From NCBI GenBank assembly GCA_031370785.1, contig JANMQY010000069.1, positions 1-35,221 on the forward strand: a stretch of 35,221 bases of DNA, written 5' to 3'. The DNA is from Candidatus Eiseniibacteriota bacterium. GTDB lineage: Bacteria; Eisenbacteria; RBG-16-71-46. This document shows positions 21,001 to 35,221 of the stretch, one piece after another (the first letter of the stretch is position 1; each line of letters starts with the position of its first letter). A program made the position numbers.

Positions 21001-24000
21001 CACAACAAATCGAGCGCGAAGGCTCGTGATTGGCGAAGCAGATCGCGGTGCGATCCGTACGCCCCTCCCTGCACGTCCAGCCTCTCGAATGTCCATCCTT
21101 GCCGTGCCCGTCGCCGAGACCGGCGATGTGCCCTCGAACTCCAGGAGGCCCAGCCATGAGAGCAGGATTCACCGCCACCCTGATCGTAGGCGCGCTCGCG
21201 TCCACGGCGCTCAACGCCTTTGCGTATCCGCCACGCCAGGACCTGATCTGGGCACGCTCGACCCTGGGCGCCCCGATCACCCTCGACGGCAAGCTCGACG
21301 AGGCCGCCTGGGCCTCTGCCGAATCCCACGTGATCCAGTACAGGGTGGACAGCGGAATCCCCGGCAGCGGCTGGCAGGAAGAAGGCGGGCTCCTCGCGAC
21401 CGACAGGACCAACGCCGTGCTCAAGTTCCTGGTGGTCGGCAATCAGCTGTACATGGGCGCGGTCATCAACGACAAGTCCATCGGCGGTTCGACCCAGTTC
21501 AACCGCTTCGACGGGCTCCTGATGGCGATCAAGGATCACTCGCTCGGGGCTCATCCGGCACCGCCCGCCGAGTATCTCTACTCGTGGTGGAACGATCAGG
21601 ACCCCAACGCGACGGATCCCGGCAAGATGCCGATCTTCATCGGCGCGTGGGCGAACCTGCCTCACGGCAGCCCGCGCTCGCAGGAGCAGATCGACAACTG
21701 GGACGCGGTCACGGTCGTGCACGGCACCACCAACACCGATGCGGTCGACGATACCAGCTACGTGGTCGAGATGCGCTTCAACCTGACGCCGATGGGCTAC
21801 GACGTGACCCAGCCGAGCGGCGATACCGTCGAGTGGAACGGCTCGATCTACGACTGTGACTGGATCTGGCCGACGCTCAACCCGACCAAGTTCAGCGTGA
21901 ATCGCACCTGGTGGCAGAGCCCGTGGGGCAACGATCACTGGTACCACGAGGTGCGCATCCGCGCGCGGCCCGACGTGACCATCAGCTCCGGTCCCGCTCC
22001 CGAGGTTCCGCCCGAGCTGATCATTCCGAATGCCGCGGGGTACCTGCCGCCGGCGGTCGACGGCTCGCTGACCGAGCCGGTCTGGGCCGCCGCGCCTTCC
22101 TTCGACATCCGCTACGGCGATGACGTGCTGCGCGCCTCCTACCCGGGCGTGGCCCAGTGGCGCGCCGGCCAGTTCCAGCCGACGGTCAACGGCGCCGTCG
22201 CGGCGGTGCTCGATCCGGGCAATTGCACCGTGAAGTACTTCTTCAAGGAGGACACGCTCTACCTGGGATTCGACGTGCGGGATCAGGTCGTCCAGTACCA
22301 CAGCCTGTTCGATCGCTGGGACGGCTTCCTCGTCTCGATCAATGACCGTGGCTCGGTCAATCGCGATCATGTCCTGAATCCCCGGCGGCTGACGTTCCAG
22401 GTCGGACCGACAGGGCAGGCGCTCGCGCGCGACTACCTGCCGTACCTGCGTGACACCCTGTTCGGGGCGAAGGTCGCGATCCATCTCAATCCGGGCACGG
22501 TCGTGGACACGATCGGCGACACCGCCGACAACGGCTACACCGCCGAACTGGCCCTCGATCTGACCAAGCTGGGATATCCACACGGGCGGGGCGACGGACT
22601 GGTGTTCCTCGGGATCGATCTTCTCGATGGCGACTCCTTCCAGCCCATCACCGACAGCTATGGGACCCGCACCTGGTGGTTCCGCGAGTACGAGGGCGAG
22701 GCGAGCTCCAGCTGGGCGTACATGGATGTGGGCACGGGGGTGACTGCGGTCGGCGACCTGGCGAAACCGGGCACGGTCGCGCTGCGCGGCAACTATCCGA
22801 ATCCGTTCGGCCGGTTCACGACCCTGCGCTTCTCGCTCACCCGGCCGAGCCGGGTCGGGCTCGAGGTGTACGATGTCCAGGGTCGAATGGTGTCGCAACA
22901 GGACCTGGGGATCATGACGGCCGGCGATCATCAAAGGGCCTTCGGTGCGCCGGGCCTCGTGACCGGTCTCTACCTGTACCGTCTCAAGGTGGCCGATCCC
23001 ACCGGCGGTTCGCCCGGCTCAGTCCTGACGGGCAAGATGATGTTCGTGAAGTGAGCCGTTCGGCAGCGTTCCTGAACTAGGCTGCTTGCGGTCGCACCTC
23101 GAGGCCGGGCGGGAGACGAATCCGCCCGGCTCGCGGTTGCAAGGCCGGCGAGACAGCCAGAGGGCGGGCGTGAGGGCGAGCACACGCGTGCGTGGATGGA
23201 GACGGTCGCTCGCCGGAGTCGCCTGCGCGATTCCCTTGCTCGCTGCATCCGCGAGCGCCGGCACCACCGGCCGCCTGAGCGGCCGGGTGGTGGATGCGAA
23301 GAACCAGCCGCTCGTCGCGGTCAACGTGGCGATTCCCGCGGCCCGCCTCGGCGCGATCACCGATTCCGACGGCGGCTACACCATCATGAATCTGCCCGCC
23401 GGGACCTACAACGTGCGCGTCAGCCTGCTGGGCTACGGTCCCAAGATGATCCAGGGCGTCGATGTGACCTCGGACAACACCACGCGGCTGGACGTGTCCC
23501 TCGTGGAAGCGCCGGTCGAGATGAAGGAGGTCGTGGTCAACGCGAAGCGGCCGGTGGTGAACGTGAACCTGACCAGCAACCTCGCCACCGTGAGCCGCGC
23601 CGAGATCCAGAAGCTGCCGGTGCAGGAGCTGAGCCAGCTGGTGGAGCTGCAGGCCGGCGTGGTGAGCCAGGGCGGGGACCTGCACTTCCGTGGCGGCCGG
23701 GGCGGCGAGGTGCAGTACCAGGTCGACGGAGTGTCGGTGAACAACAGCTTCGACAACAAGTCCATCCTTCACCTCGACCGATCGATCCTGCAGGAAGTGC
23801 AGGTGATCACCGGGACCTTCGACGCCGAATACGGACAGGCGATGAGCGGTGTGGTCAACGCGGTGCTGCGGCGCGGCACCGACCAGTTCGAGTGGGACGC
23901 CGAGAGCATGGTCGGCGGCTGGATGGCGCCGCGCGCGCACGGGCGCATCGACGTTCCGCGCGCCTACCCCGGCGACGTGCTGAATTTCCAGATCAGCGCG

Positions 24001-33000: not shown

Positions 33001-35221
33001 TCGTGCTCGCGATCGCCTTCGCCGGCACGACGTGCCACAGCGCGGCGCTTCGCGCACCGCAGGGGCTTGCGAGTCGGACGCCGGACGCTTTGGCCGGCAC
33101 GCTCGCGCCGCACGAGATCGCGTTTCTCGACACGCTCGAGCAGCGCACCTTCCTCTGGTTCTGGGATCTGAGCGATTCGCTGACCGGGCTCACGCCTGAT
33201 CGCGCGCCGACCCCCTCGTTCGTCAGCGTCGGTGCGATCGGCTTCGCGCTCACGGCGTATCCGATCGGCGCCGAGCGTGGCTGGATCACGCGCTCCCAGG
33301 CTGCGACGCGGACGCGAAGGACGCTCGAGTTCCTGTGGCGCGCACGTCAGGACAGCGCCTCCTCGGGCTCGGCCGGCTACCGCGGGTTCTTCTATCACTT
33401 TCTCGATCCCCGGACCGGAACGCGATTCGAGCGCGTAGAGCTTTCCACCATGGACACTGCGCTGCTCATCGCCGGCGCGTTGTTCTGCGGCTCGTGGTTC
33501 GACCACGTCGACCCGGACGAGTTCCGCATCCGCGCGCTTGCCGAATCGCTCTACGCCCGCGTGGACTGGGCGTGGACGGTGGTGCGTCCGCCCACCCTGT
33601 CGCTGGGCTGGAGTCCCGAGAACGGACACCTGCCCTATGACTGGCGCGGCTACAACGAGGCCATGCTGCTCCACATCCTGGCGCTCGGCTCGCCGACACA
33701 CCCGGTCGACCCCGCGGTGTGGAGCGCCTACACCTCGCGCTATCGCTGGGGCACCTTCTACGGCTATCCGCATCTTGGATTTGCGCCGCTGTTCGGGCAC
33801 CAGTACACCCACGTGTGGGTCGACTTCCGCGGAGTGTCCGACGCATGGATGCGCGGGCGCGGGCTCGATTACTTCGAGAATTCGCGGCGCGCGACGCTCG
33901 CGCAGCGCGCCTACGCCATCGCGAATCCCGGCTCGTTCCGTGGCTATGGAGCGGAGTTATGGGGGCTGACCGCATGCGACGGGCCGCTGGACGCGAAGCT
34001 CGAGATCGCGGGGCGGACGCGCGAGTTCCGCACCTACGCCGCGCGCGGCGCCTCGTTCACCGAGATCGTCGACGATGGCACGATCGCACCCACCGCGGCT
34101 GGCGGGTCGGTTCCGTTCGCGCCCAGGGAGTGCGTCGCGGTGCTGCGCGCGATGCGCGCGAACTACGGGGAAATGGCCTTCAACCGCTACGGCTTCGTCG
34201 ATGCGCTGAATCCGACGCTCGACCGCATGGTCGACGTGCACCACGGCCGGATCGCAGGCGGCGTCGGATGGTTCGACACCGATCAGCTCGGGATCGATCA
34301 GGGTCCGATACTGGCGATGATCGAGAACGCGCGCAGCGGCCTGGTGTGGCGGGTCATGCGCCAGAATCCGCATGTGGTGCGCGGGCTGCGCCGCGCAGGA
34401 TTCGCGGGCGGATGGCTCGACTCCGCGGGGACGGGGGCGCGATGACTCGCATGCTCCGCACGGCGCTCGTCCTGGCCGTTGCCTGCGCCACTGCCGGCTG
34501 CCGTGACGACGCACGCGCTCCGCTTCGCTTCTGGGCGATGGGGCGCGAGGGCGAGGTCGTGCGCGATCTGGTCAGGGACTTCGAGCGCGAGACCGGCATC
34601 CGCGTCGAAGTGCAGCAGATCCCGTGGTCGGCGGCGCACGAGAAGCTGCTCACCGCCTACGTCGGGCGCTCGACCCCGGACGTGGCGCAGCTCGGGAACA
34701 CCTGGATCTCCGAGTTCACCGCGCTACATGCGCTCGATCCGCTCGATGCGCGGGTCGCATCGTCCGCGACTCTGACCCGCGAGTCGTTCTTCCCCGGAAT
34801 CTGGGACACCAACGTGCTCGACGGCACGACCTGGGGGATCCCGTGGTACGTCGACACGCGGGTGCTGTTCTACCGCCGCGACCTGCTCGCCCGCGCTGGA
34901 TACGATTCGATACCGGGCACGTGGGAGGCATGGCGCACGTGCATGCGCGCGATCAAGCGCCAGGCGGGCGATCAGAAGTACGCGATCTTCCTGCCGACCA
35001 ACGAATGGACCGTGCCGGTGCTGCTCGGGCTGCAGGCCGGTTCGCCCTTGCTGGCCGACGAAGGTACGCGCGGCGCGTTTGCCGCGCCCGAATTCCGCCG
35101 GGCGTTCGATTTCTACATCGGGCTGTTCCGCGAATCGCTCGCGCCACCTCTCTCGGGCACGCAGATCGCGAATCTCTACCAGGAGTTCGAGCGCGGCTAC
35201 TTCTCGATGTACGTGACCGGC

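Follow-up and report, generated by a model that had tools for sequence, protein, structure and literature searches.

In the polysaccharide utilisation loci (PULs) of Bacteroidota, SusC/SusD pairs (RagA/RagB) and utilisomes place a CarboxypepD_reg-type TonB-dependent transporter (TBDT) beside a large surface partner, together with sugar regulation, surface glycanases and binding proteins and inner-membrane importers, and the arrangement is reused with different enzyme sets. The locus described here shares all of these features. It differs in that no SusD-family protein was found in the locus or in the genome (no match to SusD_RagB), the partner is a Sec/type IX secretion (T9SS) protein of another fold instead of a lipoprotein and SusD is only about one third of its size, a third gene encoding a barrel is obligatory, and the barrel of the transporter is not of the SusC type. 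The idea that surface proteins unrelated to SusD cap TBDTs is shared with the non-SusD lids of Bacteroides (BtuG and the families of preprint 10.1101/2023.03.17.533168); all of those lids, unlike the partner of our cassette, are lipoproteins, and a term search of the main text of the preprint found neither type IX secretion nor PorV.

Secreted proteins held on small outer-membrane barrels are also known. In the T9SS attachment complex of Porphyromonas gingivalis, PorZ and PorU keep their C-terminal domains (CTDs) uncleaved and are held through them at the surface on the PorV/PorQ-family barrels PorQ and PorV, and cognate PorV-like barrels have been proposed to shield a CTD from cleavage (PMC10202324). 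The barrel of the cassette passes the same family model, its partner's CTD is nearest to the PorZ and PorU tails, and the genome has adjacent PorU and PorV genes in the same order; in contrast, the passenger is unrelated, the pair is tied to a TBDT gene and to nutrient loci, several copies occur per genome, and binding and retention of the CTD are predicted. Type B cargo with PorP/SprF carriers (SprB/SprF of Flavobacterium johnsoniae) likewise combines a special CTD class with an adjacent carrier of its own that acts as anchor (PMC10202324, PMC10994853), whereas the carrier of the cassette is of the PorV/PorQ family and its CTD is a type A variant; CHU_C was matched in one of 30 relatives scanned, weakly and under the cut-off. 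In the Bacteroidota BAM complex, the 14-stranded FadL/PorV-like barrel of BamG sits against a larger barrel and offers its outer loops as a platform, with BamH arching over the larger barrel (PMC12578637), which is the geometry that we propose for the cassette. There, however, the surface protein BamH is lipid-anchored as a lipoprotein, and BamA forms the large barrel. Orthology of the cassette barrel to BamG was rejected (17.3 bits, cut-off 250, with a faint match to PDB 9n2d at E 0.047).

Our window comprised 35,221 nucleotides of a Candidatus Eiseniibacteriota bacterium (GCA_031370785.1, contig JANMQY010000069.1, positions 1 to 35,221). Between 21156 and 34445 it contains seven genes, all in the same orientation (a CBM9-like T9SS cargo, the TBDT, the partner, a PorV/PorQ-family barrel, two GH144 and LacI; Table 1), and every gene that the first-pass annotation had placed there was confirmed. 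Order and coupling are directly established: the TBDT/partner and partner/barrel junctions are both 4-base ATGA overlaps. We interpret the region as a LacI-controlled beta-1,2-glucan utilisation operon whose outer-membrane core may be a co-evolved, SusC/SusD-like triad made from type IX secretion parts, an interpretation to which we assign roughly an even chance.

Table 1. Features of the window and the evidence for their assignment.
Feature	Coordinates	Strand	Evidence or remark
MalK-type ABC ATPase	19670..20761	+	ABC_tran 113.6 bits, OB_MalK 45.4, TOBE_2 40.2
LacI-family operator-like imperfect palindrome TGTAATCGTTTACA	20986..20999	+	putative; read from sequence
g72, 632-aa T9SS cargo	21156..23054	+	TIGR04183 CTD 26.3 bits (cut-off 23)
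TonB-dependent transporter, 914 aa	23086..25830	+	CarboxypepD_reg 67 bits, Plug 37.7, barrel 90.2
Partner (g74), 1,109 aa	25827..29156	+	Sec signal peptide
Galactose-mutarotase-like supersandwich, partner residues ~40-560	25944..27506	+	AF2 model, VIA-align
FN3-like domain with DFEGYxIYRS motif, partner residues ~565-690	27519..27896	+	profile match 3mpc
Variant T9SS CTD, partner residues ~1011-1109	28857..29153	+	alignment, CTD profiles
Private PorV/PorQ-family barrel, 345 aa	29153..30190	+	NF033709 169.3 bits (cut-off 90)
GH144 endo-beta-1,2-glucanase homologue with C-terminal T9SS-like tail	30204..31778	+	PF10091 267.8 bits
LacI-family repressor	31748..32908	+	LacI HTH 53.4 bits, Peripla_BP_3 139.2 bits
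Second GH144 homologue, without CTD	32766..34445	+	PF10091 263.4 bits; start uncertain
Solute-binding protein, ABC sugar importer	34445..35221	+	SBP_bac_1 91.4 bits; truncated at the end of the window

The operon is headed by a conserved putative LacI operator. The palindrome, adjoined by a TTGACA hexamer at 20966-20971, lies 157 bases 5' of g72 and 225 bases downstream of the MalK-type ATPase gene, which forms a separate transcription unit and probably encodes the energiser of an inner-membrane sugar importer. It has a single exact match in the window (0.06 expected), and the exact motif recurs in 25 of the 106 loci examined, mostly shortly 5' of LacI or of a g72-like gene. The enzyme context is directly observed. 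The first GH144 protein matches PDB entries 8xul (1e-115) and 5gzh, 'endo-beta-1,2-glucanase' (2.2e-57), and with its T9SS-like tail (TIGR04183 20 bits, below the cut-off) it is a probable surface or secreted enzyme; the second, 47% identical to it, is probably periplasmic. The g72 product combines an ordinary type A CTD with CBM9-like regions (CBM9_1 23.3 bits, marginally below the cut-off of 23.4), and at locus L085 the same position is filled by a clear CBM9_1 (50.9 bits) with a Por_Secre_tail, making g72 a candidate surface glycan-binding protein.

The transporter, which may begin at a TTG (23086) or at a GTG (23191), consists of an N-terminal CarboxypepD_reg domain, the sequence EVVVNA, which we take to be TonB-box-like, a plug and a 22-strand-type barrel. 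Its AF2 model (pLDDT 85.9, pTM 0.86) is matched best in Foldseek by PirA, PfeA, Cir and PqqU (E ~1e-30), and no SusC chain is among the best 50 matches listed. A SusC-type barrel was rejected: the match to TIGR04056 covers no more than the first 118 positions and scores 68.8 bits, where the cut-off is 368. The likeness of the barrel is to general transporters.

As the first-pass annotation had stated, the partner belongs to no Pfam family (none at E<=0.01), and its best 120 homologues, at 62-94% identity, are all unnamed or 'hypothetical'; there are 3,302 homologues at E<=1e-3 and 3,483 clusters in the 50% library. No lipobox cysteine was found in its signal peptide. In the AF2 model (pLDDT 82.0), the N-terminal half is predicted to fold like the N-domains found in GH15, GH94 and GH116 enzymes (Z ~20), an assignment new to this study. 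VIA-align placed this supersandwich closest to 9ju0 (Z 20.2, rmsd 3.0, 265 aligned), 1lf6 (Z 19.8, 2.7, 237) and 8rf9 (Z 18.7), followed by GH94 phosphorylases (Z 16-18), and hhalign gave no sequence kinship with the GH94 supersandwich (probability 0.2). Inserted into it are Asp-rich loops resembling calcium sites, with D340, D342, D344, E349, D441, E444 and D446 invariant; invariant residues beyond these loops include W168, W184, E197, D204 and R232. The FN3-like domain that follows was assigned from the match of the family profile to the Fn3-like chain 3mpc, Foldseek matches to FN3 arrays and the strand pattern of the model. The fold by itself shows no function, and on the model the partner is a candidate for glycan binding.

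The partner ends in a variant CTD that begins VVPNPY and carries a conserved insert (AASFEP..SGRGERR), disordered in the monomer model (pLDDT <50 at residues 1016-1033). Of 36 CTDs of the family, 31 were matched by the PorZ tail, 21 by the PorU tail and 15 by TIGR04183, the general type A model; against the PDB, the family profile matches only the PorU tail, the PorZ tail and one FN3 domain. With profiles that contained no rows from this genome, five proteins reached 143, 78, 70, 52 and 50.5 bits for the CTD and all other CTDs of the genome at most 24; cassette barrels scored 438, 233, 212 and 207 bits, with the PorU-linked PorV and other paralogues at or below 109; and cassette TBDTs scored 1103, 540, 434 and 360 bits, the next best in the genome being at most 154. 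This threefold separation is directly observed: cassette transporters, cassette tags and cassette barrels are each a subfamily apart, a result new to this study, as is the CTD class, which is sharply separate and nearest to the uncleaved PorZ/PorU tags. Four of the five proteins of this class adjoin a cassette barrel; the fifth (C129, 361 aa) has neither barrel nor TBDT nearby. The barrel itself leans to PorQ (85.9 bits, PorV 42.6, both far below the equivalog cut-offs), and docking of the tag on it is indirectly supported by these profile comparisons. A CTD protein followed by a barrel is, moreover, a habit of this genome: PorU precedes PorV on C142, a 1,102-aa CTD protein precedes a barrel on C7, and an FN3-CTD protein precedes a barrel-LysM fusion on C84.

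Co-occurrence was counted over a sample of 80 related loci, restricted each time to those with enough flanking DNA, and the synteny claimed earlier held. A TBDT lies directly upstream of the partner in 65/65 loci whose upstream DNA spans 2.8 kb or more, a PorV-like gene lies downstream in 65/65 whose downstream DNA spans 1.1 kb or more, and both neighbours are present in all 56 loci with both flanks. Under a strict rule the PorV-like gene is directly adjacent in 62/65; of the other three loci, one has an ORF that was called too long, one has a split gene and one has its genes in a different order. Where both flanks reach 6 kb or more (37 loci), a g72-like gene occurs in 35 (35/35 orthologous loci), GH144 in 35 and LacI in 30.

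Within the genome, four paralogous cassettes were found, as claimed; the copy on C32 departs from the earlier description, the TBDT being followed by the barrel and an NHL protein and only then by a partner, of 663 aa and not ~1,000 aa. The partners on C16 and C32, which score 95 and 159 bits with the family profile, are related to g74 only distantly. Seven TBDT-like ORFs with CarboxypepD_reg and one fragment were detected, so that the trios account for four of seven such transporters and not four of five. Three of the four cassettes have GWxTD, NlpC/P60 or NHL genes as neighbours and no carbohydrate-active enzyme nearby. Distant cassettes in other genomes adjoin GH16-malectin-CTD with GH3 and GH2, three GH13 with TrmB, GH94 with GH144-CBM30, or a GH2 mannosidase-like gene. 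The SusD-free, PUL-like architecture suggested by the first-pass annotation is thus borne out by the absence of SusD_RagB matches, the LacI-controlled beta-1,2-glucan locus and these glycan genes beside distant cassettes, and the earlier interpretation as a whole is partly supported.

Signal peptides, CTDs and the finding that the genome encodes SprA, PorU and PorV suggest that Sec would carry g72, the partner and the first GH144 across the inner membrane and the SprA translocon would carry them across the outer one. The variant CTD of the partner would then be taken by the barrel encoded next to it, not by the general PorV, and would remain bound, as PorZ on PorQ, PorU on PorV or type B cargo on PorP/SprF carriers. 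Some 1,000 residues would in this way be fixed on the surface without a lipid anchor, and the supersandwich, with its calcium-site-like loops, might capture the glucan, or oligosaccharides cut by the CTD-bearing GH144, and hand them to the TBDT, against whose barrel the small barrel may sit as BamG does on BamA while carrying BamH. From family membership, TonB-energised import would come next, then trimming by the second GH144, and the solute-binding protein and MalK-type ATPase would serve the final ABC uptake. The cassette would probably do the job of SusC/SusD in gut Bacteroides with different parts. The supersandwich, the GH144 neighbours, the glycan genes beside distant cassettes, the operator and the lack of SusD and of a lipobox count for the triad. 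Three cassettes without glycan enzymes, the conservation of the partner and the non-SusC-type barrel count against a simple SusD analogy and also against the reading itself, as do the missing sequence kinship to the GH94 supersandwich, the C129 protein, the deviating gene order in C32 and L094 and the failure to detect GldK, GldM or the FGE-sulfatase fold in the genome.

The private barrel could instead be an export carrier only, which takes the partner off SprA; the partner would then lose its CTD by cleavage and be set free or attached to LPS, leaving a free or loosely bound glycan-binding protein and no fixed transporter complex. Cryo-EM of the translocon describes carriers that collect cognate substrates there (PMC10994853), PorU is encoded in the genome, the general type A model still recognises 15 of the 36 CTDs, and the C129 protein has the same CTD class with no barrel nearby. 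Such a carrier, however, accounts neither for the constant presence of one TBDT subfamily with the pair nor for a dedicated carrier of a type-A-like tag although PorV is present, and the known cargo-specific carriers PorQ and PorP/SprF are also anchors (PMC10202324, PMC10994853); we regard this reading as unlikely.

Conservation raises a different question. Averaged over 31 loci, identity is highest in the partner (57.4%), followed by GH144 (52.8), the TBDT (49.0), the barrel (48.4) and g72 (43.9), and this rank of the partner is a hint of an enzyme or of numerous contacts; SusD-type lids are not known to be the most conserved gene of their locus. A barrel-anchored enzyme beside the transporter, for example an undescribed surface glycanase, lyase or epimerase on the supersandwich, would also fit the many invariant acidic and aromatic residues outside the calcium-like loops, the catalytic role of this fold in aldose epimerases (Z ~14) and the likeness to a GH174 fucanase and a PL26 lyase chain (Z 14-15). 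No known catalytic motif or Pfam family was matched, however, and the family occurs in loci for chemically different glycans or without any glycan gene, where a general scaffold fits better than a single catalytic activity; we regard an enzyme as improbable. We consider it very improbable that the triad is an export or assembly device, with the TBDT-like barrel releasing or inserting the partner, as Oar reportedly aids release of the protease PopC in Myxococcus, or with the small barrel as a BamG-like assembly factor. The three cassettes without nutrient-related neighbours, the undetected motor parts GldK and GldM, and the faint BamG score of a barrel whose supposed counterpart is FadL/PorV-like (PMC12578637) would agree with it. 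That score is nevertheless far under its cut-off while the PorV/PorQ model passes, cassettes lie within sugar loci that are regulated by LacI or TrmB and also encode sugar importers of the inner membrane, and such a transporter is lacking for more than 30 further CTD proteins encoded in the genome.

The partner family was present in all 151 genomes of the phylum that were sampled, including one unpublished genome (G015). No description of the module was found in the literature searched; in Ignavibacterium album, the orthologous type of cluster is treated as a beta-1,2-glucan cluster, with its TBDT speculated to be the importer (PMC8861115). A MAG labelled I. album carries the same gene set as the cassette locus.

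The window belongs to a 3.44-Mb genome of 147 contigs that is estimated to be 100% complete, and its G+C content is high (64–72%). Positions 1–19,000 hold housekeeping genes, among them those for the E1, E2, and E3 subunits of 2-oxoglutarate dehydrogenase, and from 19,670 on all genes lie on the + strand. The first-pass annotation had described a SusD-free trio of a TonB-dependent transporter (TBDT), a large partner protein, and a PorV/PorQ-family barrel, situated beside beta-1,2-glucan hydrolase-like genes and a LacI gene, and our analysis supports this description. PF07980 (SusD/RagB) had no match anywhere in the genome, including the partner, which has no Pfam family at all; the barrel passed the PorV/PorQ family model over positions 5–326 of 326; and two GH144 genes and a LacI gene accompany the trio. 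The transporter/partner and partner/barrel junctions are both ATGA overlaps, and only 13 bases separate the barrel gene from the first GH144 gene. Because both enzymes score 264–268 bits with PF10091 and the solved relatives include PDB 5gzh, an “endo-beta-1,2-glucanase” (2.2e-57), and 8xul (1e-115), they are assigned by sequence to the GH144 endo-beta-1,2-glucanase family. The transporter lies together with two GH144 genes, a LacI gene whose operator is conserved, and an ABC sugar importer, a trait shared with SusC/SusD polysaccharide utilization loci.

Features of the window and of the other contigs (C) and loci (L) discussed in the text
Feature	Contig or locus	Position	Strand	Profile score
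358-aa protein, plastocyanin/azurin-type copper-binding domain and FlgD_ig-like (CTD-type) tail	window	2422-3498		
MalK-type ABC ATPase	window	19670-20761	+	
LacI-type operator (predicted), TGTAATCGTTTACA	window	20986-20999		
g72, 632-aa T9SS cargo with CBM9-like regions	window	21156-23054	+	
TonB-dependent transporter	window	23086-25830	+	
Partner, 1,109 aa, without Pfam family	window	25827-29156	+	
PorV/PorQ-family barrel	window	29153-30190	+	NF033709, 169.3 bits (cut-off 90)
GH144 homologue with CTD-like tail	window	30204-31778	+	PF10091, 267.8 bits
LacI repressor	window	31748-32908	+	
Second GH144 homologue, without tail	window	32766-34445	+	PF10091, 263.4 bits
ABC solute-binding protein, start only	window	after second GH144 to window end	+	
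Big_1/CTD protein, PorV-family barrel, and following genes	C7 (L103)	6353-14800 (3354-11827)		
PorV/PorQ-family barrel with C-terminal LysM fusion	C84 (L104)	26322-28391 (6323-8392)		
Companions of the C16 cassette	C16	4590-6218, 13197-14750		
Companions of the C133 cassette	C133	73083-74345, 75255-76748		
361-aa protein with cassette-type CTD	C129 (L101)	37768-38853 (6769-7854)	-	70 bits
Two complete cassettes in tandem	L040 (KSB1 MAG)	2-14495		
Two partner genes preceding transporter and barrel	L094	622-10247		

The operon carries a predicted LacI-type operator, which lies 157 bases 5′ of the gene for the CBM9-like cargo protein g72 and adjoins a TTGACA hexamer. The motif TGTAAWCGWTTACA matches the window exactly at this place only, against 0.06 matches expected by chance, and it is present in 25 of 106 loci, mostly just 5′ of the first gene of the orthologous operon, which is LacI or g72-like. 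A search for sigma-70-type promoter-like sites found none, and terminator-like sites were not more frequent than expected by chance. Two metatranscriptome runs contain contigs from a relative (19.8 and 18.3 kb, about 93% identical) that cover positions 20131–35221 and span all gene junctions. Their depth is 19–39; one of the runs (X9) shares its sample with a DNA run, where the depth is 2–5. Since contigs from RNA libraries can be DNA, they are not proof of transcription.

The transporter of the window is a TonB-dependent transporter, with 37.7 bits for the Plug family and 90.2 bits for the barrel family, a model (pLDDT 85.9) with a plug in a 22-strand-type barrel, and the sequence EVVVNA, which we take to be TonB-box-like. 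The Foldseek matches of the model were TonB-dependent transporters of the general kind, among them PirA, PfeA, Cir, PqqU, YddB, and FusA (E 1e-30 to 1e-27), and no SusC chain was among the first 50. Assignment to the SusC/RagA type was rejected, as the TIGR04056 score (68.8 bits) falls short of the cut-off (368.25) and the alignment covers model positions 3–118 only; the N-terminal CarboxypepD_reg-type domain is the sole feature shared with SusC. The trios had been thought to account for four of the five CarboxypepD_reg transporters of the genome; the four within cassettes stand, and the total is seven TBDT-like ORFs with this domain.

The partner had been presented as a protein of no named family with a conserved neighborhood, and both points hold. 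At E≤1e-3 its homologues number 3,302, and the best 120 of them share 62–94% identity with it and are unnamed or “hypothetical.” In the 50% library 3,483 clusters were counted, and the protein atlas search returned unnamed clusters only. In a scan with one genome per species, at least 597 encoding places were found, and the best 80 were kept for synteny counts. Wherever the upstream sequence extends to at least 2.8 kb (65 of these 80 loci), a TBDT lies directly upstream. Wherever at least 1.1 kb is available downstream (likewise 65 loci), a barrel follows, directly adjacent in 62, and the 56 loci with both flanks all contain both genes. The three non-adjacent cases comprise an ORF called too long, a gene with a frameshift, and the order partner-partner-transporter-barrel. 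The trio is conserved far beyond chance. The hosts of the best 80 loci are labeled Eisenbacteria, Krumholzibacteriia, Ignavibacteria, Calditrichia, KSB1, Rhodothermales, Fibrobacteraceae, Chlorobiales, Chitinophagales, Neomarinimicrobiota, and Stahlbacteria, and within the phylum of the window the partner-family profile matched 151 of 151 sampled genomes (E≤1e-10; one of them, G015, is unpublished). A KSB1 MAG (L040) contains two complete cassettes in tandem, and in L094 two partner genes precede the transporter and barrel; therefore, the module duplicates and reshuffles locally.

Because circularity had to be avoided, profiles of the barrel, transporter, and C-terminal domain (CTD) were rebuilt without any row from the genome under study and then scored on all of its ORFs. 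The barrels of the four cassettes (the window, C16, C32, and C133) scored 438, 233, 212, and 207 bits against at most 109 for the next best, which is the PorU-adjacent barrel, and the transporters scored 1103, 540, 434, and 360 bits against at most 154. For the CTDs, five proteins stood out (143, 78, 70, 52, and 50.5 bits against at most 24), four of them from the cassettes. The cassette transporters, tags, and barrels are each a subfamily of their own, and the three-fold separation means that particular types of transporter, tag, and barrel travel together. The fifth high scorer is a 361-aa protein on C129, which has no PorV-family barrel or TBDT nearby and whose two upstream neighbors, of 812 and 701 aa, belong to no Pfam family.

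The window barrel is neither PorV proper (NF033710, 42.6 bits vs. an equivalog cut-off of 250) nor PorQ proper (NF033711, 85.9 bits vs. 220); the best PorV of the genome is the PorU-linked barrel, with 133 bits for NF033710. Most of a tree built from 29 PorV-family barrels could not be resolved, with 11 of 26 inner branches open, several branches long, and one row (C74) probably badly cropped. The only grouping it showed comprises the PorU-linked PorV and the C7 and C65 barrels (support 92/87), apart from the cassette barrels.

Among type IX secretion system (T9SS) proteins, this genome encodes SprA on C113, PorU and PorV on C142, and more than 30 CTD proteins; a cupredoxin in the first part of the window also resembles T9SS cargo. 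Neither GldK nor GldM nor the FGE-sulfatase fold was detected in the genome, despite its estimated completeness. However, none of five other genomes checked, even a Chitinophagales MAG, had a GldK over the cut-off, so the sensitivity of the GldK search is in doubt. Either the motor and hub are too divergent to be seen, or type IX export has a different source of power in this phylum.

The tag of the partner comprises its last ~100 residues, opens with VVPNPY, and contains a conserved insert, AASFEP..SGRGERR, which is disordered in the monomer model (pLDDT <50 at residues 1016–1033). Among 36 CTDs of the family, 31 matched the tail of the PorZ model, 21 that of the PorU model, and 15 the type A model TIGR04183; the window's own partner matched neither TIGR04183 nor PF18962 at E≤0.01. 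The PDB, searched with the whole partner-family profile, yielded nothing beyond the tail of PorU (E 0.013), one FN3 domain, and the tail of PorZ (E 0.038), with weak E-values. Identity of the partner with PorZ was rejected: only the last 70 residues match NF052228, a model with two propeller domains, at 19–25 bits vs. a cut-off of 260, and the Foldseek match of the partner model to PorZ had a TM of 0.10–0.13. According to one review, the two T9SS proteins that retain an uncleaved CTD are PorU and PorZ, held by PorV and PorQ, and cognate PorV-like barrels have been suggested to shield the CTD from cleavage (PMC10202324). The order “CTD protein, then barrel” recurs at three further places in the genome: PorU then PorV on C142, a 1,102-aa Big_1/CTD protein then a PorV-family barrel on C7, and an FN3-CTD protein then a barrel-LysM fusion on C84. 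The C7 barrel has its own FlgD_ig-like tail and is followed by a 1,071-aa TPR/YfiO-like protein and an ExbB/MotA gene, and both an FN3 and the FN3-CTD protein precede the C84 fusion.

The galactose-mutarotase-like supersandwich is the N-domain type of GH15, GH94, GH65, and GH116. In the AF2 model of the partner (46-row alignment, pLDDT 82.0, pTM 0.75), residues 40–560, reaching to ~720, superposed on this fold in a Foldseek-independent search run twice, with top Z scores of 20.2, 19.8, and 18.7 and 237–265 residues aligned at an rmsd of 2.7–3.5. The matches were dextran dextrinase 9ju0 (Z 20.2, rmsd 3.0, 265 aligned), bacterial glucoamylase 1lf6 (Z 19.8, rmsd 2.7, 237 aligned), GH94 phosphorylases (Z 16–18), GH116 (Z 17), and aldose epimerases (Z ~14), and the predicted N-terminal domain is accordingly classed as such a supersandwich. 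Insertions make up roughly half of the domain and include Asp-rich loops with family-invariant acidic residues; an FN3-like domain and further all-beta domains follow in the model, and Foldseek with the whole model was dominated by multi-domain FN3 arrays. Profile-profile comparison found no sequence kinship between the partner family and a GH94 protein (probability 0.2). The modeled fold fits carbohydrate handling and proves nothing about it.

How the parts would work together can be framed as follows, and we regard the chances of this scheme as about even. The private barrel would be the cognate T9SS carrier of the partner and then its anchor, and the supersandwich of the anchored partner would capture a glucan or oligosaccharide for the adjacent TBDT. 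The ordinary-tagged g72 and GH144 proteins would bind and cut the polymer, and the second GH144 and the ABC system would finish the job. A solved precedent for the proposed barrel-on-barrel geometry is BamG-BamH on BamA, where a FadL/PorV-like barrel is packed on a larger barrel and carries a surface protein over it (PMC12578637).

Other roles are to be weighed against this scheme. The private barrel could be an export-only carrier; for type B cargo, carriers encoded by neighboring genes then serve as anchors (PMC10202324, PMC10994853), as the scheme would have it. The partner could be an enzyme rather than a lid. Over 31 loci it is the most conserved gene, with a mean identity to the window of 57.4%, followed by GH144 (52.8%), the TBDT (49.0%), the barrel (48.4%), LacI (45.1%), and g72 (43.9%). 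Such conservation is more in keeping with an enzyme or with a center of many contacts than with a simple lid. An export or assembly role of the TBDT or the barrel is a further alternative.

The wider contexts of the cassette bear on its substrates. Flanks of at least 6 kb on both sides are available for 35 close orthologous loci; all of them contain g72-like and GH144 genes, and 30 contain LacI. Distant members (34–41% identity) occupy other contexts. In L085 and L087, a GH2-CTD gene, a sodium:solute symporter, and a CBM9-CTD protein precede the trio, and GH16-malectin-CTD, GH3, MFS, and ROK kinase genes follow. Three GH13 genes, MFS, and TrmB occur in L089; GH94 and GH144-CBM30 in L082, L083, L088, and L096; a CBM20 phosphoesterase in L093; a GH2 mannosidase-like gene in L090; and Amidase_2 and SpoIID in L095. 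The C16, C32, and C133 cassettes had no carbohydrate-active enzyme nearby, their neighbors being GWxTD-domain, NlpC/P60, and NHL proteins. In view of these varied neighbors the module is general, and the earlier designation as a polysaccharide-utilization module fits only a part of what it is used for. GWxTD-domain proteins accompany two of the non-glycan cassettes, C16 and C133, and beside each of these lies one more protein whose last residue is aromatic, as in outer-membrane barrels; that of C16 starts with a PorV-like GMGG.

SusC/SusD is the textbook system of polymer harvesting in Bacteroidota and relies on lipoproteins at the cell surface. To our knowledge, SusD is absent from soil, sediment, and marine lineages that degrade polysaccharides, such as Eisenbacteria, Ignavibacteria, Calditrichia, Marinimicrobia, KSB1, and Fibrobacteraceae. 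More tentatively than the scheme for the window, we suggest that FCB phyla with type IX secretion and without SusD may possess a second type of uptake machine. In a stable complex of three proteins, a TBDT would be joined by a secreted partner of ~1,000 residues, held over or beside the channel by an uncleaved specialized CTD in a dedicated PorV/PorQ-like barrel docked on the TBDT. Like SusC/SusD, it would have diversified to beta-1,2-glucan, laminarin-like, starch-like, and non-glycan substrates. If so, a conserved transporter-partner-anchor module would explain how SusD-less lineages couple surface capture to import, type IX secretion would gain a role in building uptake machines, retention of CTD proteins by cognate barrels would extend beyond the secretion system's own parts, and a family of several thousand unannotated clusters would receive a name.

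Literature searches found no description of a TBDT coupled to T9SS cargo and a PorV-like barrel, and text searches of a preprint on the non-SusD lids of Bacteroides TBDTs (10.1101/2023.03.17.533168) and of a 2026 review of glycoside transporters retrieved neither T9SS nor PorV. Each part is of a known kind, and the combination is new among transporter-partner uptake systems. In the cultured Ignavibacterium album, the main text of PMC8861115 treats the same cluster type as a beta-1,2-glucan cluster and speaks of its transporter in one place, calling it a speculated importer “without biochemical evidence.” That main text contains neither “outer membrane” nor “hypothetical protein,” and no discussion of the partner or barrel was found in it; supplementary Figs S1 and S12 (gene cluster map) may label them. 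The module is testable now, since this cluster type is in print for a cultured organism (PMC8861115, main text) and the same gene set occurs in a MAG labeled I. album, with LacI, GH94, a CBM9-like gene, the trio, GH144, GH35, and GH144.
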